DNA from: Marsupella aquatica
Taxonomy: Eukaryota > Plantae > Marchantiophyta
Reading direction: 5' to 3'
DNA length: 64,000 nt
Assembly (NCBI GenBank): GCA_973895155.1
Contig: OZ316894.1
Location: forward strand, 18,514,805 to 18,578,804
Shown here one piece after another: positions 8,093 to 55,761 of the stretch (the first letter of the stretch is position 1; every line of letters starts with the position of its first letter). The translations under genes and the position numbers were made by a program. The notes under the pieces were generated by a model. That model searched no databases, was not told the origin of the DNA, and worked only from the letters and a program-made list of their open reading frames with translations.

Positions 8093-8328
8093 AATCATGT
8101 TATGTGCGCAACTGTGCACCATGTCACCTTCCCAACATTGATGGTACAGTAGATCCAAGCTTGGCACATGTTTGTGCTGGCTTGAAATGTATGTTGTGTG
8201 GATTTGCTCAGGGAGCAGCTACTATGTTGATTTGTGATAAGTGTTCTAGAGGATGGCACATGTCATGTTTGACACCACCATTGCAGGTGATTCTTAGTGG
8301 ATCATGGTTGTGTCCTCACTGTCGGTGA
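8093..8328 (+). pseudogene. PHD-finger C-terminal tail of a Ty3/Gypsy-type pol (5'-truncated)
   Basis: RNCAPCHLPNIDG...CMLC...MLICDKCSRGWHMSCLTPPL...WLCPHC (C4HC3), followed by a purine tract (ctaggggggcgat, ~8491-8503) and a TG-starting LTR-like sequence. Confidence 0.65.
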
Positions 8329-8501
8329 AGCCGACTAGTTATCATTTGTGTTCTCTTGGCAGATATGGATTGCAGGTAGGTGATCGATGGGGCTCACTTG
8401 CACCCGACCTCCTGATCTTCACACCTAAAAAGGTGTATATCAACCTTGTAGAACTCATGGCTAGCTAGAGTTAGGGGACCTTACTCCCAGCTAGGGGGGC
8501 G

Positions 8502-15540: not shown

Positions 15541-15634
15541 CGCTACGAGCTCTGCAAAGGTATCGTGAAATGCTCCCGATGCTTCTCCAGACTAGAGTGC
15601 CTTTATACTATAATGTCCCCCTTTATGTTAGTTG

Positions 15635-15785
15635 TGTTATAACCCTAGTTAGACCTAGTATAACCCAGGGTTATGTCTACTCTACCAGGGGCAGGAATAA
15701 CTGCCTAACTACCAAGTCCTTAGGGACACACTATGTAACACCTCGGAAATGGAATGGAAGGATTGATTCTATGGAGAACACAACA
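15635..15785 (+). repeat. 5' LTR
   Basis: tgttataacc...gaacacaaca, identical by eye to 19997-20147. Confidence 0.95.
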
Positions 15786-15798
15786 CGTTATCAGCACG
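15786..15798 (+). promoter_or_regulatory. Primer binding site (half-tRNA-Met type)
   Basis: cgttatcagcacg immediately after the 5' LTR, the PBS typical of Bianca-type Copia. Confidence 0.75.
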
Positions 15799-15967
15799 AA
15801 GCGCTCCACATTTTTTTTCCTCCCGATCAATTCGTCAGCCAAAGGGACAGCGGACAACATTTTTCTCTCTGATCCATAATTCGGACGATCCACAATTCGG
15901 ACAATCGGAAGTAGCAATCCGACGAGGGAGAAACTGACAAAGAGGGACGACCAAGAGCGAAGTCCTT

Positions 15968-17437
15968 GTGCAGAATAGGGGATTGCAAATCACAACTTTA
16001 TTAAACTTATATTGGAGCATGTTGACATCCACAAACTCAATCGAAAAATTACTGTTCCAGGCTCTACACATCGACGGATCAAACTATCTCTCTTGGTCCC
16101 TCGATGTGGAGGCACACCTAGCCGCCAAGGACCTTCAGGATACAGTCATAACGGATGCGGGCCCAACGCTACAGCAAAAAGCCAAAGCTCTCATTCTAAT
16201 CCGGCACCACCTAGCGGATTCACTCAAGAGACAATACATGAACGAATTCAACCCCCGGGTTCTATGGGAAGAACTCCTTTCCAGATTCAACCACACACGG
16301 ACGATTTTCTTGCCAGCAGCCAGGCATGACTGGGTGAACCTCCGCGTACAGGATCATAAGTCCATTGCCGATTACAACAGCGAGCTTTTCCGGATAGTGG
16401 CGCAGTTGGCAATCTGCGGCCAACCAGTCACTGATGAGGAACAAATTGAGAAAACTCTGTCGACACTTCATTCATCTAATCTCGTCCTCTCAACACAATA
16501 TAGGAATATGCGGTTTACCAAATACTCGGAGCTAATAGCACACATGCTATTAGCCGAGAAGCACCAACTACTTCTCCTACAAAATACCCAACAACGACCC
16601 CCAGGAACTCTCCCACCTCAGCCACCATCAGAAGCGCACTACAACGCACCAAATCGAGAACAAGGAACTTACCCCCGAGGCAGAGGAAGTTTAAGAGGCA
16701 ACTCCAGAGGCCGCGGATCATTCAGAGGACGAGGACCATTCAGAGGTCGGGGAGGTGGCCCTCGACGAGGCGGAAACAACAATGGATCCCGGGGAGGAGG
16801 CTACGGACGACCCCGCACATACAACTGGAGACCTACCTGGCAACGCAACAACAGCAGCCAACGATTACAATCAGATAACGCTGAAAACCCATCAATTTGT
16901 TTCCACTGTGGCACTAAAGGGCACACACAAAGAACATGTAGAGCCCCAACACACTTAGTCGATCTATACAAGAAAAGCCTTACTGCAAACGAATCAGAAA
17001 CATATGGCACCTTTCTTGAATCAGCGGAAATATTACCAGAAATACATATGATCACTTCGGGAAACCAACCATCAATAAACGAACTAAACCACTGCATTAT
17101 AGACAGTGGTACCTCGCACTCAATATTACAAAACAAAGTATACTTCAAATATATTATACCATCACAACGAAAGATAACGACCATAATGGGCCAGCACCAG
17201 ATCGAGGAAGGCTCTGGACCCGCAACAATCATCCTGCCCAGAGGCACAGTTATATACATTCAATCGGCTATCTATGCCCCAAGGGCAACGAGAAACCTCT
17301 TGAGCTTTAAAGACATTAGAGCAACTAACTTACATATACAGACGGGCATAGAGAACAACAAGGAAGTCCTGCACATTACTTCAAATACACCCAAGCCAAC
17401 AGCGAAGTACAAAGACTACTCCACCTTACGAGCATGA
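15968..17437 (+). CDS. gag: Copia Gag + aspartic protease (truncated before integrase)
   Basis: Zinc knuckle CFHCGTKGHTQRTC; protease CIIDSGTSHSI; no HHCC or DDE integrase follows. Confidence 0.9.
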   Translation: MQNRGLQITTLLNLYWSMLTSTNSIEKLLFQALHIDGSNYLSWSLDVEAHLAAKDLQDTVITDAGPTLQQKAKALILIRHHLADSLKRQYMNEFNPRVLWEELLSRFNHTRTIFLPAARHDWVNLRVQDHKSIADYNSELFRIVAQLAICGQPVTDEEQIEKTLSTLHSSNLVLSTQYRNMRFTKYSELIAHMLLAEKHQLLLLQNTQQRPPGTLPPQPPSEAHYNAPNREQGTYPRGRGSLRGNSRGRGSFRGRGPFRGRGGGPRRGGNNNGSRGGGYGRPRTYNWRPTWQRNNSSQRLQSDNAENPSICFHCGTKGHTQRTCRAPTHLVDLYKKSLTANESETYGTFLESAEILPEIHMITSGNQPSINELNHCIIDSGTSHSILQNKVYFKYIIPSQRKITTIMGQHQIEEGSGPATIILPRGTVIYIQSAIYAPRATRNLLSFKDIRATNLHIQTGIENNKEVLHITSNTPKPTAKYKDYSTLRA

Positions 17438-19564
17438 TGGAGCAGTTACCAGATTCATTCGCAGATGCGGCAAAAGTGACAAGATCGCACATACCCGCAG
17501 CGAACACCCCATCACGTATACAGATGACAAAGCAGCCAGCCGAATACTCGGCGCCAAGGGCCAAACGGGGAAGACCACCCGGGGCTACTGACAAGCAACC
17601 ACGGCAGAGGCGCCAAGTGCCCTCAGCCCAAACTACATCCACTCCTGCAGCGACGACCACATTATACCGAACCAACCCATTACCGAAACAAACGAAGAAA
17701 TCGCCATCAATTACAATATAACCAGCAATATATGGGATAGAAAGAGTACCTTCCCAGACGAAACATTTGCATATACAATAGCACAACAAATAAAAGAAGA
17801 CACACCGGACCCACTGACAGTGAAAGAAGCACAGAGACAATCCGACTGGCCAGAGTGGGAGAAAGCCATCAATCAGGAACTCGACTCCCTGATCTCCAGA
17901 CAAGTATTCGGCCCAATCACACTAGCCCCACAAGACATCCACTTGACAGGATACAAGTGGACCTTTATTAAAAAGAGAAATGCACAGGGGGAGGTAGTAC
18001 GCTATAAAGCACGGCTAGTAGCAAAGGGATTTACTCAAATACCAGGCAGAGACTACGATCTCACCTACTCACCCGTTATGGACGTAATTACTTACCGATA
18101 CCTGATATCCTTCTCACTGCATCACAGATTATCCATGCATCAGTTAGCTATTGTAACAGCATACTTATACGGCCACTTAGATACGACAATCCATATGGAA
18201 GCTCCACCAGAATTAATTAACAGGGTGGAAGCACACTGTCATGGGGAGAAACTGCCCACGACAACACACAAACCAGAGGACACTATGTTTGACCACTCAA
18301 ATCAAGAGATACTACAACGTATCTCACAGAGTATAAAATCGAAACCCCACATAAGCAAGGGCAGACAAACTAAGGCTCTTCAAGCCAGAATACGATATGC
18401 TGTGCAAGTGCTCAGGTCCATGTACGGCCTGAAGCAGAGTGGCCGAACTTGGTACAAGCGATTCCAAGCTGAAATGCTCGCCATGGGTTTCCAAAATCAA
18501 GATATTGCCCCATGCATCTTCCTTAAGAGAGAAGGCCAAGAATTCATTATAATTGCCATCTATGTGGATGACCTAAACCTATTCGGTACCAGTCGAATAA
18601 TGCAGGAAACCATCAAATTACTCAAACGAGTTTTCGAAATGCGTGATTTGGGGCAAACTACGTTTTGCCTTGGCCTCCAGTTCGAGCATTTACCAAGAGG
18701 CATACTTCTTCATCAAACCACGTATACACAGCGAATATTAAAGCAATTTCATATGCAAAAGGCTCATGCAGTCAAATCCCCGATGGACATAAGATCACTC
18801 GATAAACATAAAGACATGTTTCGGAAAAGAGATGAAAGCGAACCACTACTTGGTCCAGACAAGCCATACCTATCTGCCATAGGCGTCCTCATGTTCCTTG
18901 CAAATCAGACCCGCCCTGACATCGCATTCGCAGTTAACCTCTTAGCATGTCACAACGCACAGCCGACCATTCGCCATTGGAATGGCATTACAAGGATCTT
19001 ACGATACCTTAAGGGCACAACTGACATGGGACTATTTTACCCTGCAAATACAGACAACACATTAACAGGTTACGCGGACGCGGGCTATCTATCAGATCCG
19101 CAGGATGCAAAGTCGCAGACGGGATACGTGTTTATGATAGGAACAACGGCGATCTCCTGGAAAAGCAGCAAACAAACATTAACAACGACATCCTCGAACC
19201 ACTCGGAGATCATAGCGCTATATGAAGCAAGCAGGGAGTGCATCTGGCTCAGGCATGTGCTCAACCACATTAGCGAACACACAGGTACAACTAAACTGAC
19301 ATCGCCCACACCGATCTACGAAGATAACAGGCCCTGTGTGGACCAAATACAGGCAGGTTTCATAAAGGGTGATAAGACGAAGCACATCGCTCCGAAATTC
19401 TTTTTCACACACGAGCAACAAGGTGACAATATTACCGTTAAATGGATAGCAAGCTAGCTGAATCACGCAGATATGTTTACAAAATCACTACCACCGGCTA
19501 TCCATAAAGACCATTCACATTCCATCAGCTTACGAAGCTTCTCTAAGTTGATGCAGGAACAATA
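17434..19564 (+). pseudogene. pol: Copia post-integrase linker, reverse transcriptase and RNase H
   Basis: LPDSFADAAKVTRSHIPAAN linker; RYKARLVAKGF, YGLKQSG, YVDD; RNase H YADAGY..YEDN..KHI, TAG at 19455, then NHADMFTKSL. Confidence 0.9.
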
Positions 19565-19996
19565 GAGACCACAGAGAACACTTACCTCGTGTTCAGGGGG
19601 AGCATTGCCGCCAGGACGCCCGACCGAGCGCCCGACCACCTGAAATGCAAGAATACAACTCGGACCACGCAGAACATACCATCCAACACCATCAACAAAC
19701 AACAAAGAACTCTACGACTACGAAGAACCAGTTCACCAGACTGGACAATCATAAAGATACACCCAGTAAAACAGAAAGAAGAACACTTACTGTTACAAAG
19801 TGACCAAGATAAGGGCAATAGGCCAAACTATCAAATGGGTGATGGTAACACTCTTTCCCCCCACAAAGGCGGAGGGGGGGTTTTAATGAGGTTACATCCC
19901 CATTTAAATAGACATAATAGCTTAGGCCTCAATATAAAACAGAGTAGACACAAGTGGGAGTATCATTTACCCAGAAATGTTACCCCCAAGGGGGAG

Positions 19997-20147
19997 TGTT
20001 ATAACCCTAGTTAGACCTAGTATAACCCAGGGTTATGTCTACTCTACCAGGGGCAGGAATAACTGCCTAACTACCAAGTCCTTAGGGACACACTATGTAA
20101 CACCTCGGAAATGGAATGGAAGGATTGATTCTATGGAGAACACAACA
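19997..20147 (+). repeat. 3' LTR
   Basis: Follows the PPT, precedes TSD AGTTG. Confidence 0.95.
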
Positions 20148-20925: not shown

Positions 20926-21156
20926 ATGTCGACTTCTGAGAGTTTGGATACAGATTCCGACTCTGACTTGCCTTCCTCTGAGGGGGACATTCCTCCTCCC
21001 CCTCAACAGCCTCAAGCACCCCCTCCATTAGGCCCTATTCCATGCTGGTGTCTTAGATGTAAAGGACTGGTGTTTCGTCAAGCGTGGCAGTCCATTGAAC
21101 ACATCAAAAACTATGGTCGACATGAGGGTGATTTACCGGGATATTCAGCTCGCCGG
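20926..21156 (+). CDS. First coding exon of CACTA-A gene: transposase-associated Zn motif
   Basis: IPCWCLRCKG...EHIKNYG resembles the CPC..C..H transposase-associated domain; phase-0 donor GT at 21157. Confidence 0.65.
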
Positions 21157-21782
21157 GTATTGCTTGACATGAACTCCGCTATATATGATACACTATCATA
21201 ATAGTTGGCTGGTTTGAGACCTTTTAGGAGACAAGTATTTTTTAATTTTTAATTTTTTTTAATTGAAGTTTATTCCGCGTGAACCCCACGGATGGGGGGA
21301 GCAGCAGGCAAAAAGGCAAAAAGGCTTTCAAGAGAAGTGACAATAGTTGGGCAGAGTCAAGCCAAGTGCCTTGCCACTAAGCAAGATCATTCAACAGGCT
21401 ACCCAATAACCCTGTGAGTGGGAAGCAAAAGTAAAGTAGCCAATACCAGCCAAGCTAACAAGTAGCATTCCGAAGCCTGTAATAAGAATTTACAAGGAGT
21501 AAACAAAACAAGACCCTGGGGTGAGGGTCCTGCCCCCCGTAAACCAGATATCAGTGACAAGCATCTGAGCCAGTAAACTAATGCAAACATGAGTAATCCT
21601 AATCAGCACGCTCAGAAAGAGGTCAAACATCTCACTTTGCTCCTAATAATCCTAATCTATTCCTGCACTAAAATTTGTTTCACCTGTGTAACTCTGTAAA
21701 ACTTATTCTTAGAACCAGTAGCAGTCGCCACTGCGGTCAGGTGGTCCAAAGTTTTGGAGATGGTAAGTATCTGGTTAAAAAC

Positions 21783-24700
21783 TCATTTTTTGGCAAGGTC
21801 AAACGTCTGATCATTGCGTGCCTTCCAAATAGCCCACAGGATCTGATACATCAAAAATAGACGAAGCGTGCTCCGAGGGCTCTTCTTAAGCGATAAGGAG
21901 ATTAATTCAACCAGGTTCTGATGTGGTTGAATGATTGTACCATTCAGCCAGCCCTGCGCTTCCCTCCAGCAGCGCTGTGCATGTCTGCATTTAGTGAAAA
22001 GATGAGGAATAGTCTCTATCATCCCAGGGCACAGAATGCAAATTCCATCTAACTTGGCAATTCTCACTGCTCTTGATCCAGAGAATAGTCCCTGTGCCAA
22101 GACCCGTCAGAGAAACGTTTTTGCTCTGGTGGAAAGGTCTGCTGTCTAGATGAGCAACCAAATCTTGCTCCATTCTTCATCGGTATAGCTCATTTTGCAT
22201 ATTTTGTTCAACCTGAGGTGATCCGTTCCTTTAGGCCTCAGCATTTTGTATACCCGCCAGTTGGGTAGGCCAAACTGCCAAATCCGTATGTCCTTGTCAG
22301 ACCACTGCCATTGACAAGCGAGGGTATCAAATCCACTACCCAGGAAAATGGATCCATGGACCACTCTGATCAGTGCAAGGCATAAGGTTCGGTCTCCATC
22401 GGTGAGGCCTCTCAATTGGTTCAGCCTAGTATCCAAGTTCCTCCAGTCATTCGTAGCAGAGGACCAAAAATCCCCAACCTTCCTGATTCCTAAGTTGCCA
22501 CAAAGTTGAGTCACTGTCCCAATGGATGCCTCAAGCAGGTCATAGAAATCCTGAGAGCATCGAACTAGATCTTCCAGTATCCAGTGTCCAGGGATCGCAT
22601 CCACCCCAGGGTGGAAAATCAGGTTTTCCCTAGCAAGTGCCCATGCGCCCCAGAGTTGCCCCGTGTAAGTCAATTTCCCGAACGATCATGGTGAACCCAG
22701 TAGCATTAGATCTGACATAGAGTAGTGGTTCTTGCGTATAGATCGATAGTTTCTCCATTTTGTCAATCCCAAGTTTACAGCAAAGAGTTTCGCCCATTCC
22801 GTCTCCGGGTGATCCAACGCCCCTGTGAACCACTTACAGAGGAGTGCATCAGAATGACTTTTGAAGTCTTTCAGGCCAAGTCCGCCAACATTCTTTGGCC
22901 TGCACAGCTTATCCCACGCCACAAGGGGTAACCTTTTACCCCCCGTCCTGTTGTTACCCCAAAGGAAATTCCTGCTTAATGCTATCAATTTCCTAGCCAG
23001 TGCAGTCGGGGAGTGTAGAAACATCATATGATATATGGGTATAGCCTGCAAGACATGTTTAACAAGCAAAAGGCGGCCCGTAAATGACAGAAAGCGTGAG
23101 GACCATGAAGATAGTCGTGCGCTAATCCTATCCAGACAGAAGCCATGTAACTGCGCTTCTGACAAGCCAGCTCCCAATGGAGCACCCAAGTATTTTTGCA
23201 CCATTCCTGATTCACTGATAACACATCCCGTCGCTCTAAGCCATCCAGGAATCTCCTCTACTCCCAAGGGGATAACAATGGACTTTTTGAGATTGAGTTT
23301 TGCTCTAGTGGCACATTCGTAAGTGTTCAATGTGCTTGTAGCCTGTTCGAATGCTAACTCCGTAACAGGGATGAATAGACCCATGTCATCCGCAAATAAT
23401 CTAAATGAGATATTCAAGTCAGGAGTAGTTTGAAATCCTTGTAATCTCCCTGCCCTGATTTCCGCATTACAAAAATCCATTAGCGGTTGGGTCAAAATTG
23501 CAACAATAGAGGGGAGAGAGGGCATCCCTGTCTCACCCCCCGACTCAACTGAATATCTTCAGTCCAGATCCCGTTAACTAGAGCCTTGGAATTTGCATTA
23601 CTTAGTAGCAACTTGACCAAGAAGATAAAATGAGACCCAATGCCCAGTAGGTGCATTGTTTCCCAGATGTAGGAGTGATCCACTCTATCAAACGCTTTCT
23701 TGAAATCCAGCTTCAGGAATAGAGCCGGTGTATTCGTAATGTTAATCCAATCATTCATGATCAGCTAGGTAATGGAGATATTCTCTAAAATATTTCTGCC
23801 AGGGATGAATCCTGTTTGTTGTGGGCAGATCAGTTTAGAAAGCAATGGTTTTAATCGTTGTGCCAGTAGTTTGGCAATAATCTTGTAAATGATTGTCAAC
23901 ATCGTGAGCGGTCGCCAATCCCCCAGCCTTCATTTGTCAGTCTTTTTAGGAATGAAACGAATGACTCCCTCCTTTATCTTGAATGCAAGATGTCCCGTAC
24001 GCCAAAAATCAGCCACCATGGAGTGTAGATCCTCCTTTAAAAAATCCCAGCATGCACAAATTCCCTCAGCTGTCATCCCATCAATCCCCGGAGCCTTGTC
24101 ACATGGTAAAAGTAACAGGGTACAATGCAACTCCTGTATTGAGGGTAGAGCCTCTAATCTTCTGATTTCATCACTCGTAAGTGCAAACCGAGTATGAGCA
24201 CAGAGTACACGTCGAGCGGTGAGCATATCTGATAGCGCCTCCTCTAAGAGGAGCGGTGGTGAATATAGCTCCTCGCAATGTCTCTGCACCTCCTTGATTA
24301 CTAGCCGTTCATCCTGAATCTCTTGTCCTCCTTCCACTACCAGGTACTCCATGTTTTCCCTTTGCCGCTTTGCCTTGACAGTAGAAAAGAAAAACTTGGA
24401 AGTTTCTTCACCCTGGCCAAGCCATCTGATCCGAGATAGACGTCGATTGTGATGTGCCTCCTCTATCTCCATTTCACGTACACAATCCTCCGTATACATG
24501 AAATTCAAAGTGCAAGAGGATGAGTGATCCTCAACAATAGCCAACTTTAGCATTCGTAGCCTATCCTTCATTAACAGCATCTCTTCCTCCCAAGGTAGGG
24601 GCGCAGCTTGTAGCTCCATATAGCATTTTCTTAGCCTTTGATATGCCAGTGCGAATCTCAGGTGTGGGTCCAAGGGAGGAATGTCAACCCCCCAAGCCCC

Positions 24701-25531
24701 AGTGAGTAGTTCTACATTGCCTTGTTTCTGTAGAACCGCAGGATTGGCCTTGAAATACGTCGCTCGCCTTTGGTTTGCTCCAGCCAGTATTGGGAGGGTA
24801 AATCTAAAAGTAAGTATCACCGGATCGTGGTCAGAAAGCGCAGATGTCCCATCGTGCAGGAGAGCCAATACTTCCCCCGTCCAACTCCCTTTTTCACTGA
24901 GATAGAATCGGTCTAGGCGTGACTGTATTAATCTGCCATTGCGAACCCTTCTCCAAGTGAATTTGGATCTAGTAACCTGACCCAAGATTCCAAACACATC
25001 TTGTAAGTCCAGTCTTGTAGTAAGGAACCTCCAGAATTCTTTCTCTCTACCGCAAATCAAGGGGGAGGAACTAGTGGAGTCACCCCTTAATTCCGTCATA
25101 TTAAAATTGCCATCGAAGATCCACCGATCCTGAGGCAGAGCATTCCGAAGATCATTCCATAGTAGAGTCCTTTCTCCAGTGGAGCAAGGAGCATACACAC
25201 AGATTGAACCAAAATTTCCTTCAGTATGTTCTACTTGGATCCAGACCGCTCGGCTCTTATCCAACGTGCCGGATGTAAGCACGTTAAACAACGGGTGCAA
25301 TAGAATGGCAATACCACCTCAGCCCGCATCCGGGAGAGAGTAAAAGTGCTGATATGTAGGTAAAATGATTTTGAGAGCAATGTCCAATCTGAAACTGTCA
25401 GCCTTAACCTCTTGGAGCATCAGTGCATCTAGGTGAGGTCGGTTGGCTGAAACCCATTTAGATACCACAATTTTCCGATTTGGATTGCATAAGCCACACA
25501 CGTTCCATGTGGCCACCTTGAAAGTTGTCAT
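21783..25531 (-). pseudogene. LINE ORF2: APE endonuclease, RT, zf-RVT
   Basis: TWNVCGL, LQEVK, SRLDRFY, SDHDPV; KAPGIDG, KLDFKKAFDRV, GVRQGCPLSP, LFADD; CILC..ETIPHLFTKC. Split over several frames. Confidence 0.92.
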
Positions 25532-25667
25532 GAAAATTCAACTTAATCAATTAACCTCCCTGCTCCAGCCTAAGGCTAAACGACACCTCGTAGGAGTTAG
25601 ACGCTTTCTTGCAGGGAGCCCACCGAGGGCCCAACAGGTAAAAGCAACAGTGCCGCCTTAGGTGACC

Positions 25668-27474
25668 TTACCATAGCATTAGGATCAAGTGAAAAATTGC
25701 TACCACCTCACAGGGGGAATCCAAGACATTCAACATTACATCAGGTGATAGGGGAGGAGCCTCAGTAGCGCCCGAAATTGTCAAGGCACCAGTCGGGTGT
25801 TGCAGATCTCTTCGCGCTCGCTGACTGGGGGTGCTCCATCCATCATCATCCTGCAAGCGGTGATCAGCAACAAACTGTAAGGCACGCTGATTCCTGGCCT
25901 TCTTTTTCCCCTTTTTCTTTTCATCCGGTGGGGACCGCTTAGCCAATTTCCTGGCCCGATCCTTTTTAACCGTTAAATTAGAGATGAATCCTTCATACTC
26001 TGACAACTCCATGTCGGAGGGCTTCTCTAAAGCAGACAGCCCATCGCCTTCTTCCATTTCCTCTGAGGTTTCCACATCCTGATGCGGTAGACCCGGATTC
26101 TCATCTGGCTCCGCAACAATGAGAGGAGTATCAACTGATCCTGTTCTAGCCAGGTCTTCTGAATTGTTCAGATTATCATTTAATACAGCCGAGGCATAGT
26201 GCATTGTTTGTAGGTTCTGCATGACCTTAGAGATAGCGGTGGCACCAGCCCGTAGGTGAAGAGCAATCACTCTCGCCCTTCCTTCATCCGTGCATTCATC
26301 TACTTCTCGCTCAATTACCACCAAAGGAGGCACCGCATTCCCCCCCATCGCACTACCAAATAAAACAAAATCCCCATTCCATCCGCCGGTGGAGGCGCCC
26401 TGCTCGCAATCAGAGTGTCACTCTTAGCAATAGGTGTTTCCTTGCCCACTTGATCCACCACGGAAGGGAGTGCATTCACTGTTGCAATAGATCCGGCGGG
26501 CACCGTGGCAGGAGCCAACGGTGGGGCAGCGTTCGGGGGTCGACGGGTGCAATACTCACCGGCTCCACAGTCTCATGTAATCTGCAATCCCAAGCGAGAT
26601 GACCTTTTTTGTTGCACTTAAAGCAGTGAAACGGGATATTTTTGAAAATGATAGGCTGCCAAATCAAAAGATCCGCTTTAATCCGGACCTCCACACTTTG
26701 TGGTAGCTCCCGCTGCGTGTCCCAAAGAATACACACACGATCATGCAGATAAGTGCTCAAATCATCCCCTTGGATGTAATGCAGTATATCTCCCAGAGAG
26801 GCAGCCAGCTTGCGTCGACATGGTTCAAGAATAAGTGCCTGGAATGGAATTTCTATCCACACCGGCAGCAACGTAAAGGATTCGTTCCGAATATCAAAAG
26901 AGGGATCCCAAGGGAAAGTAAACACATATTTCCGATCCAGAAACCAAGGGGCCCCCTCCAATGCCAGGTCACGATGCTCCAGATTTTTGAAAGCCACCAA
27001 ATAGAAGCTCTTCCCCACAAACTTTACTTGTGTCACAGGCCAGTGCATCTCCTTAACCAAGGTTTTCTCCACCCAGAATTTGAAGGTGGGTAGCATGGGA
27101 GCCCTGTCAGTAAAGTAGCACATCATGGCACAATTAAAGAGCTCCGTGACACTGACCGCTGCTTCCTCCAGGGACCATTCGATAGTCGTGTGCAGTTTAG
27201 ATGGCCAGTCTTGAACTAAGAGATCCGCAATGCGCTTGAGTAAAGGAACACAGGCCTCAGCCGCCTGCTTGTTGGTCTCCATGGGTCTCCCATGGTCCGG
27301 AGCAACAGTCCTACCCAGAGTTCGCGACACCGAGCCAGACCACTGCACAGCATTTGCATTCCTCCTCGCAGATTCCCCAGCAATTATTGGCTCGTCCTCC
27401 ATTCTTTCCCCAATGTCGTCATTGAATCTTCCAGCTTGTCCATCGCCAATCTCTCTATCTTCTCCCGATCCCAA
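25668..27474 (-). pseudogene. LINE ORF1 (DUF4283-like + CCHC knuckle)
   Basis: GAPWFLDRKYV..W, PVWIEIP, CFKCNKKGHLAWDC; frameshifted C-terminal part. Confidence 0.85.
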
Positions 27475-28435
27475 CGAGAGAAGCCATTGGAATTGTCACC
27501 AGAGGGTCAAAGCCCGAACCAGCTCTGGGCCGCAACAGCAGGCATGACTAAATAATTTTCCTTGACGCCATCAGGTTGATTCTCCTGGTTCTCCCCGGAG
27601 CGCACATCCTGTCCGGAATACCTATGTTTCAATTCTTGACGGGATGTATCGTGGGAGGTGGACGCATGAGAATCATGTGTCGGTGGTTCCGACCGAGCAA
27701 CAGGGTTAGCCTAGTATCTAGCTCCACCTTCGGCATCGCGCCGGGAGGTCTTTTCTCTCAAAAGAGCAGGTCCAACTCCACGACCATGATAGCCATAGTT
27801 GGGGCGGGTGTTCTCCATATGTTACCAAGTGTAGCCAGGTCTAGAGGATTCAACAGTATACACCAATCTCCCCGCCCACAGGTCCACCCTATGATGTTTG
27901 TTGATATAGACTTCCGTGCCGAGAATTCTTCTCCAGGGATAAAATAATCAGCTCACCAATCGACAGCAGGTGCTATCAACAGAGCGCAGCGAGTCCCCAA
28001 ATCTATAGCCAAGTTTAGCAGTTTCCCTATATCAGTCACTCTACATTGAGGTAGGATCACATCAAATCAGATTCTTCCACCACGCTCACATGCCTTATCG
28101 CGCAAACACTGCTTGGGCTCCCTTGATCAACTCCACCAACTACTTTAGGGTGGACAAAAACCGCGGCCGTGAACCTTGCACAGTGCCCTATTCATGTGAA
28201 AAAAACCTCCGGCTTCCAAAATCCCCCCAGATGGTTTGATTGATAGCAGAATCACCTCTGTCTAAGAGATAAGCAAGATTAGCACATGAAAAAACCATCC
28301 AGTCGATCAAAAACCCGAGAGAAACCCAAACCCTAGTGCACCTCAGCTCCGTCAGTTCTCTTCTTCAGCTCCGTCAGTCCGTCGGTGCCCCTTTAGGAGA
28401 CAAGTATTAATTTTTGTTTGTTTATGATTGAATAG

Positions 28436-29409
28436 GTGCCTTGTAGGGCCTGTCCTCCATTGGTCTCTAGTCAACTATGGCATGATGCATTCCTAGCTGG
28501 TGCTAGATAGTTGCTTGCATCATCAGTTGAAGACCCCGAGCAATCATGTACCCCCGCACATGTTCCGGCAGATGTTGTTCATGAACCCATAGTGGTAGAG
28601 TTGGGCATGGTAGGGATGATGCACCGCCCCCTACTAGGGTTCTACGCACAAGACCATGTTCTCATAGACGTCGACAACAACATGTAGTTCTAGACACAGA
28701 CCCATCCCATGAGCACTTTAGAAGGAGTGTTATGCCTCCACCAGGGGAGGAGTACATAGAAGTTGAAGGGAGATTGGGCTTATCATATGTGACGGGAAAG
28801 GCAATTAGTGTCTTCAAGGATTTTGACCCTGAGAGTTTTGCGATTCCTCGTGGCCTAGCCATTGATATCCCTATACATATATGGGGTCGGCAATGGATAG
28901 TGAAGGCATCGACCCTTGGCGGGGAGGTTGGATTAGGCTTATGTGCTTTGGAGGACATTGAGGTCCCTCCAAAGCCTTGGCGTCGTGGCTATGATGGGGA
29001 ACACCTTTTCCCTTACATTGGGCCTGTGTATACATCCAAGAGTTGGAACATCCTCTTGCGCCAACATCCAGCTTGGGGGGTATATGCATTGCAGATGGAC
29101 TCAGACCCAGATGAGGTCCTAAGGAGGCCTTGGCATTGTAGGATGATTGATGGGGACCCTGTGCGTTCAGATAACATAGCTGGGTACATCAATAGTACAC
29201 ATGGTAGAGGGAGTGGACTCCAGCCTAATGTAGAGTGGGCTCAGATTTTTGGCCCACCCACTCCGCCTTACTATGTCACACATATGGATGATCATGTTAT
29301 GACAGTAGCCATATGGACCCGAGTACGGACCATTAGGGCGGGTGATGAGTTGTTTTGTGACTATGAATGGAATGCACCCAAGATGGGCATTCGATCTGGC
29401 CACACTTAG
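28436..29409 (+). pseudogene. SET-domain exon inside CACTA-A
   Basis: GLGLCALEDI...PYIGPVY...YALQM...IDGDP...NIAGYINST...PNVEW...RTIRAGDELFCDYEW. Phase-0 acceptor at 28435; one TAG (28508) and one frameshift (~28600) upstream of the intact SET ORF 28732-29409. Confidence 0.8.
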
Positions 29410-29518
29410 CACATATGTGTATTCCCCATTTTTGAAGTAATATAAGAATATTGTAATTTTTTTAGGAACCCATGGGCTAACTCAAACGTATATATCTGTT
29501 TTGTGTGTTGTATGATAG

Positions 29519-30377
29519 AATGCATATGTTAAGCCGGATGTTGGGGTGTTACCACGAGCTATGCGCCAACACCTTGTGCAGGCCATGGAAGATTGGCGAC
29601 ATGCCTCTCTACCACCAGATGGCGATCCGGATGTTCCAGAGCAGGAACCAGATGCCTCCCAATCAAGAGTTGATGAAGATAGGGCAATGGATGACTTGAT
29701 GCACCAATTCTATGACATAGAGGATGGTGATCATGACATGGCTGATGGGGAGAACATTGAGGTCCCACTTCCACATCAAAAAGGTTCAAGGAGTTCAGCC
29801 TCCAAACAGTGGGAGGAAGCACGTCAACATGCGCAAACTCGGATATTTGATGGATCACGCTTGTCTCGTCTTTCAGCAATAATGTTGTTGTTGAACTTGC
29901 AGCAAAGACATGGAGCAAGCAACCTACTTCTTGATGATCTGTTTCGGACATTGCATGATTGTATCTTGCCAGAAGGAAACAACTTGCCAGACTCTTGGAA
30001 AGAGGCAAAGAAGGTGTTGAAGTCCATAGGTCTGCAGTACGAAGTCATTCATGCTTGCGTGAATGATTGCGTTCTGTTTAGAGGCACTTATAAAGTTGCA
30101 ACGTCATGTCCTACATGTGAGAAGCCTAGGTTTCGTGAGGACATGTTGACGGGAAAAGTCCCTCAGAAGGTCATGATGTACTTTCCTCTTATACCTCGTT
30201 TGCGCCACCAATATAGATGTGTTGAGTTGGCTGAGTATATGGTTTGGCATTCCCAAAATCGCTCAGATATGAGTTCACAACCACCCACCATGCGTATGAT
30301 GGTTGACTCCCCTGCAAACAAGTTTGTGGAGGAGAGATGGGGTGAGTTCCAAACTGACCCACATCATGTTCGCCTAG
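29519..30377 (+). pseudogene. CACTA-A TnpD transposase, 5' part (interrupted)
   Basis: LPEGNNLP, IHACVNDCVLFR, CPTC, YFPLIPRL, ...DPHHVRL| break at the insertion. Confidence 0.9.
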
Positions 30378-30782: not shown

Positions 30783-31850
30783 CTAAACAAAGTGCTCCTT
30801 ACAATGTGTATTTGAGCACGTGCCCCTGTCTCCTTTACTATCTACCCTAGTGTCACGGTTGCAAGTCCCTTTATCTTCAGGGAGCTGAAACTTGGTGGTG
30901 TTGTTCCTAATGGCTATAATCTCCCGCAAAAAGTGTCTGGGATTTTCTCTATGCGGACCTGAATAGTCCCTTCCTACAAATGCTTTAGCAAGTGACGTGA
31001 CAAGTGCATCGTCAAGTTCTGCCTCAGGACGTAAACTACATATACGATGCTTCACGTTCCAAGGAATCTCATTGCTATTGAGGTCCAACACACTATGTGT
31101 AAACAGTGACTTCCAAATTTTTGTTGCACATCTCTTACTAAGTTGATCATAAGTAATTTCATTTTTTACCTTGTCTCTCTTTATGTGCAATAGAGACCAC
31201 AGTGGAGAGTTAAGAAGAAGATAACATCTAATGTCACTTGCATGGGATAGTTTCTCAAGACAAGGCCAAAGAATTGTTAGAAGAAAATTATCTCCACCAT
31301 TGGCATGCGTGTAGGGCACTGGAAATAGTCCGATCATGCTTGGGTTGGCAAATGCCTTAAGGGGGGAGTCATCCACAAGGAGGGTGTTGGTTTCATCATA
31401 TAGATTTCCAAATCCACTCCATACCACCCGAAAATCCTTCAGTAGCACATTTGCCTTTCCGTTTGTAATGTCATGCCTTTGAATGCCTGTGTCAAAGGCT
31501 TCCACTTGTGTGAATACAAACTTAAGTTTCAACCGCTCCTCAGCAGTGAACATCATGTTCAGCATTTTCACTGTTCAATGTACCCCAGCACATGTCCAAA
31601 TTGCAACGTCAAATCGGTCAAAAACCAACTTTAGAAACTCATGGAGCCCTGGCCTTTCTGTGTACATGCGACTAATTCCATTTTTTCTATCCCAATGCAC
31701 TCCACTTGGGATCACAACATTTCTGGATTTGCCCTTGCTTTGGAATTCAACTGAATCCCAAAGTATTTTGTTAAGATCCAAAATCAGCAATTTGCGCTTG
31801 ATGGAACAAGGTCTTGGTTCTGCAAGTGCAACAAATACCAATCTTAGAGA
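30783..31850 (-). pseudogene. FCP1/NIF-like HAD phosphatase-fold domain
   Basis: KLLILDLNKILWD...RPGLHEFL...FDVAIWT, in-frame TGA at 31575, ...LLKDF..VW...NTLLVDDSPLKAFANP. The DxD motif reads DLN. Confidence 0.75.
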
Positions 31851-32303
31851 TAAAACCACATTTGAAGTTTGGATGGAGATCATCTCTGTCAATCCAACAC
31901 AAGTGGCCAACCACAAAGAAAATATATCTGCATACTGATCAGATTCATTGAGAAACCGTAAAGAGGAGATGGATATTGATACTGATGCTCTAATTGTTAA
32001 ACTTGCCCAGAGAGGCATGACTTTGTGGTAGCTCACTTGAATTGAGACTCATAGGTCTTGGGTTCAACTGTTGTGGCTGACACTTCCCAACTATTGTGGC
32101 TGACTCTTCCCTTTCTGTGGGGTTTCACAGATTTCCCTTTAAAAATAAAAAAAATAAAAATAAAAAATTGTTAAACTTGAAGTATAATTATACAGACTAT
32201 ATTATATCAAATTGATAAGGTCACATCGCTCAATCTAGACCTTGGCTAACAATGCGATCCATATTCATCAATCAAGATATCATCACCGAGTTCTTGTTGG
32301 ATC

Positions 32304-34240
32304 TCATAATTGACATCGGAGGTACTCTCCTCTACCCAATAAGGTGCAGACCAAACCGGAGTTATCAATACTCCCATACTCAATGTGAATACTCAGAGTT
32401 TTTGAATGTCCTAATTTACGAAGAGCGCTTAGGACATTCAGTACAAGATAACCCGAATGGACAGTTATCATCACAACAATGGTAGGATTCCGTGGTAGCT
32501 CTACTATATATTGGAAGAGGACCAAAATCTCTACTTCAGTCCACTCTTTTTGCTGAAGTTGGTTGAAATCAACAATTGCAAGAGGGCATGTTGGAGATTG
32601 TTCTTCCAACGACTCCGGATCCACAGTCTTCATTAGGTTGTTACTAAAAAATGTGACCCACGGCTGGGTCCAAGAACTTGTCCCACCGCCAAACTTTTGA
32701 CAGTAAATATCATCTAGACGCATCACCAATGTCATTGGCAATATCTCACTCTCCTTTGTATGATTTGACTTCAACAAATTTGTCAACCATACATCGCCAG
32801 CTGCTCTTCGGCACCTGTTCAACTCCGAATCGGGACCCAATAATGGGAGGACTTCAATCACTTTAGCCCAATCAGTATCTGCTGGGAAGTGTTTTGGATC
32901 CTTCTTGAAGTAGTAATCTCCAATAAGAGACTTCAATTTGATCAATATCTTCACCTCCTTTGCAAACTCCTCCATCGCTGGAACATCTGACTTATTAGTC
33001 GGATCTTTCTTCAATAAAATCTGACCCGACTTCACCTTGTTCAAAATTCTGGTCAAATCTCTATTTGAGATTTCACCATCAAAACAACGAAACATGGCGA
33101 CGGTTATCGCCTTTTCGGACCTTTTGTTTCCCTGTGTACCAGCCCCATCAGGAAGTTTTCCATCAATCCACATCTGGCACACTAACTACCATAACTCGAA
33201 AAGATCATTCTCGGCAAAAAGTAACCAGTATACATTTTTCAAGTCTTTTCTCCCCATGGTCATCCTTGCCAATGCCAGATAATCCTACAGTCAAAAATTA
33301 GGGAGAATGTTGTAAGTTATCTACAATCAATGAGATTTGATAACACAATCGCTTGCTTGGACAGAGACCATCTCCGTCCAAGCCATAACCAAAAGTAGAA
33401 TGAAGTAAAATCTACAGAATGGAAGGTCTCACTCTTGGACAGAGACCATCTCCATCCAAGTCATAACCAAAAACATATTGAACTAAAATCAATGTAACGG
33501 ACGGTCACACTCTTGGACAGAGACCATCTCTGTCCAAACAAGAAAAATGTTTCTCACCTGAAATTTTTGACTCTCTTGGGCGTTTGATTTGTTGTCCCCG
33601 TGCTTTGGCTTTCTTGGTCTTCCAGTTTCAAGGAATTGTTTTCTTGCATGAACAATTGTATCTTTGAAGCACGATTGAAACACCATCGAAGAATTGATGG
33701 CATTTGATCGCATTGAGTGCTCAACCAGTATAGCCGATGGCGTAAGGTCTAACAATAATCTAGCCTTCCTATATTTTAACTTTTTTGCCAAAACTGTGAG
33801 CTTGGCATCAGTTTCGGCCCACTCAAGAACCCATTTGGCCGCCCTAGCAGAATGTTGCCCACTGACGGCAAGGAAAACAATCTCGCCTTTCTTCACTCCT
33901 GCAAGAAGGTCTTTGCGGTCGTTCTCCGTGCTGTCAAAATGAAGCAGCTTTCTAAGTTTTGGATTGTAAGGAAGAAGGTCCGCAACGTGAGGTTCATGTC
34001 TAGGGTTTTTCACCATGGATTCGACTATGTGCTTCACATGGGCACTGTTGAGCATCCTGTAACATAACCTTGCCGAAGCTGGATAAATTTTCTCCACTGG
34101 AATAGAAAATATTTCATTTATCCCAAAAGTATAGTACTGCTCTATTCTTTGGAGAACATCATTCCCTTCTAAGACCTTCTTCACCTCCGGGGCATCAAGT
34201 TTGTCTCCCTCATCCTCTGGGAGCATCTATACGTCCGTCG
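32304..34240 (-). pseudogene. ParB-like gene of element G, 3' exons (ParB domain + possible degenerate MTase region)
   Basis: YRMLNSAHVKHIVESMVKNP...FLAVSGQHSARAAK...HSMRSNAIN aligns by eye with E1 (HVENIKMLLMKNP...IGGNHGARAK). Downstream ILNKVKSGQI and PLAIVDF parallel E1 LLNRVIGKKI and LAIADIPY. Confidence 0.65.
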
Positions 34241-34243
34241 GAG

Positions 34244-34771
34244 TTGACCGCGCATGCTTGGGCTGAACAAGAAGTCTGGGAAGCAAAGGCACGGCTTGCT
34301 GATGTCCAATATGGACCTGTACTCAACAAAGGACAGAGCTCTAGAAGGCTGAAGAGTATGTTGGCTGAGGAGACGAAGCAACCAACCCCCATTCTGAAAG
34401 GGCTAAGCATGGTATTTGTGGAGGCGGGAATTGGAGAGGTTAAGTGCAAAGTGTACAAGTCCACGGTGCTTGACCTAGGTGGGACAGTGGAGGAGAATAT
34501 AACAGAGGACACCACTCATGTCATTACTAAGTCATATCCCAAAGCCTGCCGCAAGTTTGGGAAGGGAGACATTCGCTTTTATGTCATGTCCCATAATGTG
34601 TTTGTGGTTTCATATGCTTGGCTTGTGGAATCAGTAGCAGCTGGGAAGTGTCAAAACCCAATGGACTATGATCTTTTTGAGGCCTGGCCACGGAAGGGTC
34701 AGGATCCTTACAGAGAGGACTATGAGACAACAAGTGAGGAATGGGTCATTAGCGATTCTGAATCAGAGTGA
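34244..34771 (+). CDS. BRCT-domain ORF (5'-truncated), probable CACTA-B cargo
   Basis: ILKGLSMVF...LGGTVEENITEDTTHVIT...VVSYAWLVESVAAGK...DY matches the BRCT consensus. Confidence 0.75.
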   Translation: MTAHAWAEQEVWEAKARLADVQYGPVLNKGQSSRRLKSMLAEETKQPTPILKGLSMVFVEAGIGEVKCKVYKSTVLDLGGTVEENITEDTTHVITKSYPKACRKFGKGDIRFYVMSHNVFVVSYAWLVESVAAGKCQNPMDYDLFEAWPRKGQDPYREDYETTSEEWVISDSESE

Positions 34772-35303
34772 GGAGTAGTAGCATCAGTTTGGACACAAGT
34801 TTTTTTGTATAAATCAGATCATTGAAATAAATGTGATCTTTGAACTAATGTACCTTGTTATGGTTGGTGGCAGTTGGGCTTATTTTACTGTTGGCGGATT
34901 GTTGTTTCCTCCTGCCTGGGGGTGTCACTGTAAACGTACTGGGTGGGCTCAAATCTCGGCGGTGAGATATCTAATACCGCTCTCACACCTATGCCTATGA
35001 CTATACATGATTGGACTCTGATATGGTCATGGGTGTACATGCAGAGGCGGTACATTTGAGGACAGCTGTGGAGGTGGTGACACCCTCAAATATTGAGGAA
35101 TTTTGTGTCATTCACTTGACAATAGGTACACTACTCGCAAACCTGTTTTTTTCTTTTGGGGTGGTTTAGGGTTTGTGAGAATTTATTACACGTTATGTTA
35201 ACTCTTTTGGCACATACAGTCAGGGATATATGGAACACAAATACCACCATTAGGCATCCCTGTTCACTGCTGTCCATGACTGTAGAGCTTCCAGCCTGTT
35301 ACA

Positions 35304-38300
35304 ATGCACCCTGGTCACCACCCTCCCCAAACCCAGCCCAGGGCACAGGCACTGCCTTTGCATCATCCCACAAGGATATCACGCCATGATAATAAGCTTT
35401 GGCAGCGTGAAAGGTTACGAATCAGACTTTCAGGAGCCAGTAGGATGAGATGTCCTTGTGCAATCTGCCAAGGATCCCGTACCAGGGGTCTGAATGAGGT
35501 TTGGCGGCATATCGCGGTTCATGGAAGAGATCCACGACATCGAGTTTGGAATGATCCTGCAGAGGAAGATTCTTCCGACGAGGAGTGGAGGTTAGAATTT
35601 GATGCTGCCAATGCTGCAAGACGGGCAAGTGAGGTTCTGCCTGGTGCATTTGACAATGTTGTAACTGGTCTCTGTGGGTTGTCAGCTCTCCAACGGGATG
35701 GTGCTCAGGCAGCACCACGTGACGAAGGAATTCATGTGGAAGAGATGGTGAGAGACATCTTCCAAGACTTGGATGCATTTCACAATGGGCTGGACAACGA
35801 AGAGGATACGGCTGCAGATGCAAGTGTGCCCCCTGTCGAAGAGCCTCTTGATGAGTTTGAGATAGGGCAGGAAACCCCTGGGCATGATGAGATGTTTGGC
35901 TCTCCCCTACAAATACAGGAAGGCAGGAAGTCTTTGTACCCTGGTAGCAAATGTTCTAAACTGGGATTTGTCATCATGTTCCTGAACATTTGCGGCAACC
36001 ACAATGTCCCCAACGTTTTAGTTTCTGAGTTGTTGGCATTCTTGCGAACAACTGTGCTACCAGATGGTAATATTTTGCCCAAGAATATGTACGAGGCAAA
36101 AAGATGCATATCTAATCTTGGATTGAACTATGATTCCATCCATGCCTGTCCTGATGGGCATGTTCTTTTCAGAAAGGAGTATAAAGAATCGTTGACATGC
36201 CCTAAGTGTGGGAAGCACAGGTATCAGAACTCAGGAAAGTCTATGGTTCCCGCCAAGGTACTTCGTCATTTTCCACTCATTCCCAGACTTCAGCGGATGT
36301 TCAGAAGCCATGCCATCTCGGAGATGATGACTTGGGCAACTAACAAGAAAAGTGATGATGGGCTACAACGACATGCTGCAGATTCAAGGCAGTGGAAACT
36401 CATAGATGAGATGTATCCCGAATTTGTTGCTGAGCCGAGGAATGTCAGACTTGGGCTGTCATTGGATGGGGTAAACCCATTTGGAGACAAGAACAACAAA
36501 TTTTCGTGCTGGCCTGTAACTATTTTGAATTATAACCTTCCTCCTTGGATGACTACAAAGCGATTTTTTGTTCTGATGGTCCTACTGATACCAGGGCCAG
36601 ACAGTGCTGTATCTGCCAACATAGATGTGTTTCTGGCTCCCCTAGTGGAGGAATTGAGAAAGCTTTGGGAGGAAGGATTTCTCACATATGATGTCCTACA
36701 GAGGCTTGGGAGGTTAAACCCATTCATCCTTAGAGCCATCGTCATTCTGACTATAGCTGACTACCCAGCCCATGGGATGATATCAGGCCAAACAACAAAA
36801 GGATATTGTGCTTGTACTATCTGTGGGCGCAATGTCACCAGTGAGTACTCCAAAGCCCTGCAGAAAGTGATATACATGGGCCATCGTCGTTTTCTGAAGG
36901 CAGATCACCCTTACAGAGAAAGACAGGCACTGATTGCACACTTTGGCAATGACATTGAGCAACGTGGACCCCCGACACGAGTGACCAAAGAGGAGATCAG
37001 GCAGTGGGGAGCACTGAGGGATGACTATATCAAACGAGGGGGCAGGGAAGATAGAGTGAGTGATCCAATAAAGCGATATGGTGTAAAAAGACTGAGCATA
37101 TTGGACTTGGAGCTCAAGTATTGGAGGGTAAGCCTCTTGGAGTTGATGCTAATTGGGATACATGTTTTGGTTCAGAGCATGTGCATTCATTTCGAAGAGA
37201 GAGACTAAACTTGAGGCATTTGCTGACGCTTTTGCATTGCAACGGTGCAGGAGTTTGAGCCAAGCAAACATAACATTGATGTTATGCACATTGAAAAGAA
37301 TATTTGTGAGAGTCTACTCAGATTCTTGTGTGGAGAGAAAGACACTGGTTCAGTGAGATTGGATCTTGAACAGAGGGGAATGAAACCCCATCTTTGGTTG
37401 AGGCCACATGCCCACAGAGCTGATGTGCTCTTGAAGTACCAAGTGCCCTATGTTCTGACAGACACAGAGTGGGAACTATTTGTGCAGAGGTTGAGTTCTT
37501 TGAAGGTTCCTTCAAACTATGGCAGTGCTTTCAAGAAGCATATCATGACTAGAAAGCTTGGTAGTATGAAAAGCCATGACTACCATATGTTGATGCAATA
37601 GGTGTTGCCTTTATGCCTGAGGGGCCTGTTGCAGAAGCCTGTTCGTAATGTGATCATGCGACTCAGTGATGTGTTTCGTCGTATTTGTGTGAAGGTTTGG
37701 GATGAAACACACTTCCCACAACTGACAGAAGATGTCACTCAGGTGCTGTGTGACCTGGAGATTTATTTTCCTCCCGCATTTTTTGATGTCATGACCCACC
37801 TACTTGTCCATGTTGTGGAAGAGCTACACCAATTTGGGCCTGTGAGTGCTCGTTGGTTGTACCCTTTGGAACGGTACATGAAGGTACTCAAAGGTCACGT
37901 GAGAACATATTACAAACCTGAAGCAAGCATGGCTAAAGGTTACATCAAGGATGAGACTCTGGGATTTCTGACCGAATACATAGCACAATATGAGCATGTG
38001 AAGACCAGGGTGTGGAATTCTGATGAGGAGGAAGGGGTGATAGGTGAAGTACTGGAAGGGGCTGCAACCACAAAGAACCTGACCATATCTATGAGAGACT
38101 TGGCACATGACTTTGTATTACACAACACTGTGGTGATGGAACCCTGGATACAGTGAGTGCATACATGTGCTATAATTCAGTTCATGAGCTTAAATGTTGT
38201 GTGCGTGTGGTTTTCTCCTTCAGCCTGTTCATGTTTACCCAAGTTAATGCTGTGTGGTTGTTTGTTCAGGGAGTATGAGTCATTGAAGGCGGCCCATTCC

Positions 38301-39035
38301 ACTGCAGGAACAACTTTTCCAGGTTTCATGGAGTGGATCAGAGTGGCAATTAGAGAGCATCACGAGACCCACCCAGACATGGATGCAGACGTTTACCTAC
38401 TGTCTAATGCCCCTAGCCTGAAAGTGAAGACTTACAAACGGATGAGAGCATATGGGAATCACTTTCGAGTGAAGGATGGTGACAGTGCCTACAGGGTGAC
38501 GAATGACTGTGGGCTCATCACTGTATTTGAGCAACAGAGCCACAATCACGACAGGGCCTGGATGGAGATGGGATATGTGGGAGAATTAGTTGACATATGG
38601 GCTCTGGACTATGGGGCGGTGTCCAGTCCTGTGATTCTTATGAAAGGTTCATGGGTGCGGCAGGATTGGCTTGGTAACAGGGCTACCATGAAGAGAGACA
38701 ACGACGGTTTCTTGCTAGCCAATTTCAGAGGGAAATTGCCCGAATGGTCTGAGCCATTTGTGTTTCCCAGTCAGGTGGAGCAAGCTTTCTTCCTGGATGT
38801 GGAAGACTCCCCAGGTTGGCGTGTAGTGTGTCATAAACAGGCCAGGCAACGTCGGATGGAAGGATCAAACCTTGAGTTTCATTTACACTCTCATAGTGCC
38901 TTTGATCGTCGGCGTTCAGACCAAGTGCCTGTAGTTCATGATAGCGGGGACTTCATTCCTGTGACAAGGGTAGATGCATTTGCTGAAGGAGGCGAATTCA
39001 GAGATGCAGATGCCAACAGTGTGCCTGTGCCATGA
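35304..39035 (+). pseudogene. CACTA-B TnpD transposase
   Basis: CPCAIC..H, IHACPDGHVLF, RNVRLGLSLDGVNPF, ADYPA, DVMHIEKN, KSHDYH, FFDVMTHL, YPLERYM, EPFVFPSQ. Introns ~37128-37250 and ~38154-38269; in-frame TAG at 37599. Confidence 0.93.
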
Positions 39036-39189
39036 GTAATGTGAATTGTTTGCATGGACATTAGTGAGGGGAAGGATGTGTAATAAAGTAATTCTGAAGC
39101 AACACAGATGTATGGATGGATGCCTGGTCATTGTGGGTGCATTGTGTTATACGGGGTGACCATAGATGACATGTTTTTGTGGTCCAGTA

Positions 39190-46790: not shown

Positions 46791-46977
46791 CTAAATTGGG
46801 ATCAGGGATCTTAGGGCTAGATAGGGACTTTTTGGGGACCTATTATTTTGCTTGATGGGGATAATCCCGATATGCGCACTGTCCTTGGAGAGGGTTGACA
46901 CCTATGTGCTTCCTAGTTGGGACCATTCTTAACTAATACTTTACATTTAAAATTGTGCAGGTGAATACGTTATAGGA

Positions 46978-55266: not shown

Positions 55267-55761
55267 TCTGAATAATGAACAAACCTATTACTTAGGTTTC
55301 AACGTCTTAGTGGGGTATGAGCAAGGCACATACTTAAGGTGCATCATGGGTGGTAGTACCCAATTTTATTAGTGTTGACATTTTGTCATAATTAAGGTCA
55401 CTAATAGTGCTGCATTTTGATGAGCAGAAGCACTAAACTTCGGGAATTGTTAGAAAAGCAGGCGAAAAGGATATTTTGTCCAAAGATATTTTATCCAACT
55501 TTAGCGGTATATCATGATTTTCACTGAATACATTTGCATGTATGATGGATTGCATTATAAAGTGTTTTGGCCTATTAGCACTTCTATTGTTAAATGTATG
55601 CTGACATTATGTACATTACATGAGAATGTGTATGTTGTCATTGCATCTCTTGAAGATCCTAATGTGTTTCCCTTGTGTGTATTTCAAATGTATTTGTGCA
55701 GGTCTTTCTGTTATCAACTCCAAAAGCAATGGTGCTATGCATGTTCTAGATTTGTATTGCA

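Follow-up and report, generated by a model that had tools for sequence, protein, structure and literature searches.

A conserved SET-domain exon inside a liverwort CACTA transposase gene and a likely splicing choice between SET protein and transposase

Can one transposon gene encode both its transposase and a chromatin enzyme? The question is raised by a stretch of 64,000 nucleotides (nt) from the liverwort Marsupella aquatica (contig OZ316894.1 of assembly GCA_973895155.1, positions 18,514,805 to 18,578,804 of the forward strand; hereafter the window, with positions counted from its first letter), where an exon carrying a SET domain lies between the first exon and the body of a gene for TnpD, the transposase of CACTA elements. 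A sequence-only reading of the locus proposed that a single donor site serves both downstream exons, so that a histone lysine methyltransferase-like protein and the transposase share a zinc-type (Zn) N-terminal domain, and that the former may be an anti-silencing factor. Our analysis favors a broken copy of a CACTA family whose intact copies splice the common exon 1 either to the SET exon or past it to TnpD, a reading that we hold with a probability of about 0.6.

Exon 1 (20926-21156, + strand) runs for 77 codons from the ATG at 20926; its translation starts with Ser/Asp-rich and Pro-rich sequence and continues into a small Zn-type domain (CxCxxC...H). The GT at 21157 follows in phase 0 and opens intron 1 (21157-28435, +), which holds a long interspersed nuclear element (LINE; 21223-28408, - strand, with DUF4283 and zf-CCHC domains) between the two copies of a 17-nt target duplication (21223-21239 and 28392-28408). 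Subtracting the 7,169 nt of the LINE leaves a phase-0 intron of 110 nt. Exon 2 (28436-29409, +), broken in the window copy, comprises a helix, a disordered linker, a family-specific N-terminal extension and the SET domain with its YINST motif, and closes with a stop at 29409. It is followed by an A/T-rich spacer of 109 nt (29410-29518, +) and by the first part of exon 3 (29519-30377, +), which corresponds to the N-terminal region of TnpD after the transposase-associated domain (TAD). A nested insertion of 30.6 kb (30378-61030), with 39-nt inverted ends and a target site duplication (TSD) of CTAG or TA, splits TnpD, and the rest of it (61031-63250, +), containing Transposase_21 and DUF4218 together with introns, stops and frameshifts, lies beyond. 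Only three T-rich YAG sites occur in 28392-29600; two of them are the phase-0 acceptors at 28435, leading to SET, and at 29518, leading to TnpD, and the third (29465) opens just 4 codons. The coordinates, phases, stop and motif given by the sequence-only reading all held up on re-examination. By itself, the match of one phase-0 donor to two phase-0 acceptors is weak, with a 1 in 3 chance for each, so that support has to come from relatives.

The window copy is dead, being able to make neither the SET protein nor the transposase. The frame from 28436 meets a stop at 28508-28510 (+), a one-base frameshift near 28602-28604 (+) must be crossed to reach SET, 12 extra bases (4 codons) lie inside the SET domain at 29312-29323 (+), and TnpD is cut at 30377 and resumes at 61031. 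None of these four lesions appeared in the sequence-only reading. For comparison we used sister copies in contigs of five public runs (X1-X5, from three studies, none on record as RNA), whose depth was not taken as copy number. At 28508 all listed depth in 4/4 runs carries another base, giving a sense codon; at the frameshift all depth of X1, X2 and X4 has one more base, with X5 giving no cover; the 12 bases are missing from contigs of X1, X2, X5 and X3 (X4 was not listed) and fall in a gap in all covering homologs. In three of the four runs compared (X1, X2 and X5), contigs lack the LINE to its exact length of 7,169 nt, the LINE being private to some copies, and an X2 contig passes from 30377 straight into the sequence found at 61031. 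The sisters have the SET exon and lack the lesions, so that the exon is a family trait and the lesions are private to the window copy. In X1, exon 1, the intron, the SET exon, the spacer and TnpD are all covered by contigs with a depth of 122-280, which can be followed as a single path at an even depth of 256-280, with overlaps of ~20-30 nt and no single contig covering the whole; the spacer is bridged by sister contigs. The SET exon of the sisters has 321 codons. There are at least two subfamilies, two variant contigs being found at the same place in X2 and X4, and in one sister variant the SET stop comes 5 codons earlier. Contigs of X1, X2 and X5 all depart from the window sequence at 29598 and carry identical loose letters there, which reads as a common insertion or deletion derivative in sister copies.

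More distant relatives retain the same arrangement. For the SET frame there are 12 close homologs and, at E up to 0.001, 130 representatives; the named ones come from two liverworts, Calypogeia fissa and Riccia sorocarpa. In the Calypogeia model P0001, which is 63% identical, exon 1-like residues join the SET exon at the same residue. One example of a relative with a naturally intact SET is CAM6082608.1. A metagenome scan yielded two loci from 161 matches: L002, a decayed SET without context, and L001, 50% identical over 199 codons, with a SET exon that stays open up to its stop, an upstream exon 1 of the same make-up and, at the same place, a phase-0 intron of 111 nt. Identity between L001 and the window by codon position is 0.58/0.68/0.37, third positions being far more changed. 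In the SET core, 7/10 listed differences from the sisters are silent, as are 7/9 transitions against 0.32 expected (p=0.006), counted in a filtered table (share >=45%, with three further rows outside the listing). Judged by these substitution patterns, the SET exon is under purifying selection. That it is an integral, conserved part of the CACTA lineage, with a conserved phase-0 intron linking it to exon 1, is supported by these comparisons; this much of the proposal that one locus encodes both proteins stood, and the skip from exon 1 to TnpD is argued by a less direct route below. At the end of the L001 contig (1990-2008), 228 nt past the SET stop, a T-rich run followed by TAG and AAT resembles the TnpD acceptor of the window, with only 6 nt beyond.

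Links to the flanking exons recur among 177 stored proteins. The Zn profile matches 14 of them at E<0.01 (4 of those being profile builders), and TnpD exon 3 matches 6 at E<0.001, with 3 more recognized by eye; 3 of the 6 extend to Transposase_21. Most of the others are open-frame calls that start inside the SET exon and can show neither a Zn head nor TnpD. The Riccia models place SET directly ahead of TnpD. In a tree that kept 75 of 175 hits (P0077, P0099 and P0112 were dropped for short SET cover), Zn-headed and TnpD-linked members stand in separate well-supported clades, with weak clustering of the labels (22 and 27 of 500 shuffles were as low). The most distant members, such as P0098 and P0107, showed no transposon link, and P0140 was rejected as a false hit. 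Viral and prokaryote collections held no relatives among 104 and 66 pattern matches, so that no SET donor was found; viral SET structures fit no better than cellular ones.

Is the product of this exon a SET domain in more than outline? Pfam SET scores the window copy at E=0.0031 and 18.4 bits, under the 22.4 cut-off, and P0001 at 34.1 bits, over it. The predicted model of P0001 has a predicted local distance difference test (pLDDT) value of 78, exceeding 90 over most of the core; every match listed by Foldseek against PDB is a SET domain at 16-24% identity (E 2e-7 to 1e-5 for LegAS4, SETD8, MLL1 and G9a), and the Atlas feature score to SET clusters is 0.96. A single-sequence PDB search gave no SET match, whereas a profile search did, the best match among solved structures being LegAS4 (E 4e-5). 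On the predicted model, the family protein has a SET fold. SET domains have established roles for the GxG, YxG and ELxxxY motifs and the catalytic Tyr, and in our alignment A2 the counts for these motifs are 59/63, 63/64, 63/64 (G223), 63/64 (Y226), 50/52 and 47/51, the first two belonging to GxG and the last to the Tyr of the final motif. At the NH motif, Asn is found in 52/60 and Ser in 58/60 sequences, the canonical His being replaced, nearly always by Ser. Because the His is absent family-wide and LegAS4, for which methylation of H3K14 is described in the accessible literature, also lacks it (INF where INH is canonical), the YINST motif, which the sequence-only reading had singled out as non-canonical, is a family signature rather than decay and is compatible with activity. 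LegAS4/RomA, SETD8 and MLL1 share fold and core motifs with P0001; the family differs from them in sequence (20-23% identity) and has no ankyrin, pre-SET or post-SET parts.

The Zn domain of exon 1 is likely the TAD of TnpD, as profile comparison suggests. A profile of six exon 1 segments found, as its best non-member among 1369 sequences, the TAD of a second CACTA element in the window, CACTA-B (34106-41392), with a domain E of 0.0064 (next 0.78), and the relative P0076 matches Pfam Transpos_assoc at E 0.031; window exon 1 alone matched no Pfam family. CACTA-B has TAD and Transposase_21 in one open reading frame (ORF; 35286-37205), along with DUF4218 and DUF4216, and no SET exon. Against Transposase_21 proteins of Riccia, exon 3 scores E 3e-65 to 7e-49; it also matches P0077 and, at 38%, CACTA-B; the remainder of TnpD matches Transposase_21 (E 1.3e-32) and DUF4218 (E 7.7e-24). 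By eye, TADG, HDLPG, CPTC, HRLLQH and VERY motifs can be read in TnpD, with acidic residues that we take to be the DDE triad. The triad is accompanied by C(2)C and H(3-4)H, in agreement with the CACTA definition given in the accessible text of PMC12730594.

Judged by its transposase, the element is a CACTA; its ends were not seen, and no CACTA/G inverted-repeat pair for it was found within the 64,000-nt window. The window ends ~750 nt after TnpD, on the side where CACTA elements carry a TnpA gene, and the right end is probably past position 64000. As a guess, the left end may lie at 15606-15634 (+), which begins TACTA, one change from CACTA; a Copia element (15635-20147, +, 5-nt TSD AGTTG) separates it from the gene and ends ~780 nt upstream of the ATG.

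Splicing of exon 1 to the SET exon is well supported by the conservation of the junction across relatives. Use of the near acceptor, with 3' end formation in the 109-nt spacer, would very probably give a Zn-SET protein of ~400 amino acids, and use of the far acceptor, across an intron of 1,182 nt, would probably give TAD-TnpD; the spacer would hold both the 3' end of the SET transcript and that of the long skip intron. We infer the skip because exon 1 resembles the domain that opens TnpD in CACTA-B, because a stop closes the SET exon in the window, in L001 and in most homologs, because the Riccia models leave the SET exon at varying points and yet all reach exon 3 at one constant motif that has no Met nearby (so that exon 3 needs an upstream coding exon), and because 109 nt alone separate the SET stop from a good acceptor. 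Behind the last SET motif no GT or GC could be matched to a fusion in both the window and L001. The SET-exon gene is real and conserved and, in intact copies, probably functional, and a gene with two products is likely.

A number of observations weigh against this splicing scheme. Neither junction was found in a spliced contig or transcript of the runs, none of which is on record as RNA, and the joints 21156-28436 and 21156-29519 are absent among the 15 joints listed, with 39 further joints outside the listing. No protein joining exon 1 directly to exon 3 was recovered in searches that were weak (0/34 candidates for exon 1 in longer proteins; 1/1142 at E<=1e-30 in the exon 3 search of proteins). 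The evidence from Calypogeia and Riccia consists of gene models, RNA-based or predicted, several Riccia models fuse SET to TnpD, and L001 shows no TnpD in the 228 nt remaining on its contig. The TAD assignment of exon 1 builds on sub-threshold scores, the silent-change count on the filtered table, and a usable ATG lies 14 codons inside exon 3, where the motif upstream of this first Met reaches just 3.7 bits (18/1000 shuffles were as high).

That ATG, in frame, would suit two genes arranged head to tail, with exon 1 and SET forming one and TnpD, devoid of a Zn domain, starting at or after 29519 with Met codon 15. Such an arrangement could also draw on the usable GT sites past the SET stop and on the EN/SPM families of Arabidopsis, which use splicing and split genes alike according to the accessible text of PMC13547354. 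However, a terminator and a promoter would then have just 109 nt, the acceptor at 29518 is a clear one, exon 3 of Riccia starts without a nearby Met while a weak motif is kept upstream of the Met in the window, and the TAD stays on TnpD in CACTA-B; we consider two genes improbable. Still less likely is a single Zn-SET-TnpD fusion of SETMAR-like design, which would need a donor within the final part of the SET exon. The Riccia models P0077, P0099, P0112, P0060, P0084, P0159 and P0170 do link SET to TnpD sequence, but they join it at differing SET positions, mostly ahead of the catalytic Tyr, as would come from a predictor, and the stop stands right after the last SET motif in the window, L001 and most homologs, even 5 codons earlier in the sister variant mentioned above. 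CACTA elements are known to pick up gene pieces, and the window copy is decayed, as would be expected if the SET segment had been captured from the host, or had inserted on its own, and had no function for the element. The sisters nevertheless keep the exon, no TSD of its own was seen around it, the exon layout is identical at 50% identity in L001, the SET exon is under purifying selection by our estimate, and a Zn head or a TnpD tail occurs across several well-supported clades of the family; layout conservation and selection largely refute a captured piece, which we regard as very improbable.

If the two-product scheme is right, what the SET protein does is a separate matter. Its domain would, on balance, be expected to bind S-adenosylmethionine (SAM) and methylate lysine. 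That Zn-SET targets the chromatin of the element's own copies and works against silencing is a tentative suggestion by analogy. It is somewhat less favored, yet a serious possibility, that the splicing scheme is correct and SET methylates TnpD or some host protein other than a histone, acts as a repressor of the element, or does no more than bind partners that bear lysine. This would sit well with the loss of the NH-motif His throughout the family, with the absence of any single close histone methyltransferase class (16-24% identity to all listed), and with the family-specific extension and inserts; on the other side, the glycines of the SAM site and both tyrosines are kept, and SET and other chromatin enzymes have been recruited repeatedly by other transposons. 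Counting against our favored reading are also the absence of the canonical His (RFINHSC) from all 126 motif matches among the 177 stored proteins, near-duplicates included, and of a post-SET Cys region from the SET protein, and nothing in the data points to a substrate or to activation over repression. The fullest version of the proposal, in which a splicing switch of a widespread bryophyte CACTA lineage yields the element's own sequence-targeted histone methyltransferase, the Zn domain guiding a SET of a new, YINS-type subfamily to element chromatin where an anti-silencing mark is written, is conceivable, and we regard it as doubtful.

The closest known parallel to the two-product scheme is found in En/Spm of maize and EN/SPM3 of Arabidopsis, where, according to the accessible texts of PMC13547354 and bioRxiv 10.64898/2026.08.24.746577, alternative splicing gives TnpA and TnpD, and TnpA-Spm3 induces hypomethylation. 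They belong to the CACTA superfamily, as the present family does, and the parallel lies in one gene giving transposase and accessory protein by splicing, with the accessory product linked to anti-silencing; there it is the DNA-binding TnpA, whereas here it would be a SET-fold protein encoded upstream of the TnpD body, with the Zn exon in common. The term 'SET domain' has no occurrences in the accessible text of bioRxiv 10.64898/2026.08.24.746577. A transposon-borne SET with a proposed role in chromatin change is described for the red-algal Plavaka (EnSpm superfamily) PAG2 in the accessible text of bioRxiv 10.1101/2025.02.11.637652. By that description, PAG2 stands as a gene of its own in which SET is fused to a DNA methylase, in contrast to an exon within the transposase gene of a TnpD-type plant element and without a methylase domain; N6_N4_Mtase matched none of the 50 family proteins scanned. 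HarbingerS, oomycete MuDR and Helitrons also carry SET genes (PMC12730594; bioRxiv 10.1101/2025.02.11.637652, accessible texts), in other superfamilies and hosts and as an accessory gene, not an alternative exon. VANDAL/VANC of Arabidopsis, as far as it is covered by the accessible sources, likewise has an element-encoded factor working on the element's own silencing; it differs as a Mutator-superfamily element with a separate gene and no SET enzyme. The accessible texts of PMC12973397 and PMC11982613 hold nothing on a SET exon in a TnpD gene, and a literature search outside which most subscription journals, Repbase Reports and supplements lay turned up no account of such nesting; Repbase may already hold such families. 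Transposon SET cargo and En/Spm alternative splicing are each known, and their combination was not found in the literature.

A compact SET protein that has an exon in common with a transposase and is conserved across liverwort lineages would allow a direct test of whether a transposon writes its own histone marks. The splicing choice between SET and TnpD would offer a way to study the balance between jumping and self-protection, and Marchantia or Physcomitrium are ready hosts for such testing. In the accessible sources, the known plant anti-silencing factors VANC and TnpA are described as DNA-binding regulators, and the transposon-borne SET genes of oomycetes and red algae are described without functional tests. 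If the fullest version of the proposal is true, no earlier plant transposon would have used a catalytic histone writer against silencing.

Other elements share the window. In 947-3376 (+), with 3545-5233 (-) as its neighbor, an ORF that looks ParB-like by eye (IGGNHG motif) precedes a Pfam N6_N4_Mtase ORF (E 3.5e-7), and a DUF7869 ORF is adjacent (E 2e-50). The ParB-like and N6_N4_Mtase ORFs resemble the DNA methylase and ParB cargo of red-algal Plavaka, as given in the accessible part of its description, and the region is possibly a second transposon with chromatin-modifying cargo. A Cys-rich stretch at 8100-8330, outside the scanned ORFs, looks PHD finger-like by eye. In CACTA-B, a Transposase_24-like frame is found at 40739-41389 and a BRCT frame just upstream, at 34106-34768; its CACTAC at 35129 pairs with 38828 (2 mismatches in 16), the latter position lying within the coding region, so that the pairing may be chance. 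The 30.6-kb insertion further contains NIF/FCP1-like phosphatase frames (30786-32048, -), DUF7869 (48227-50716), NSD-like PHD fingers (54589-55263), long unnamed ORFs (55750-60338) and arrays of a 28-nt repeat at 44700-46800.

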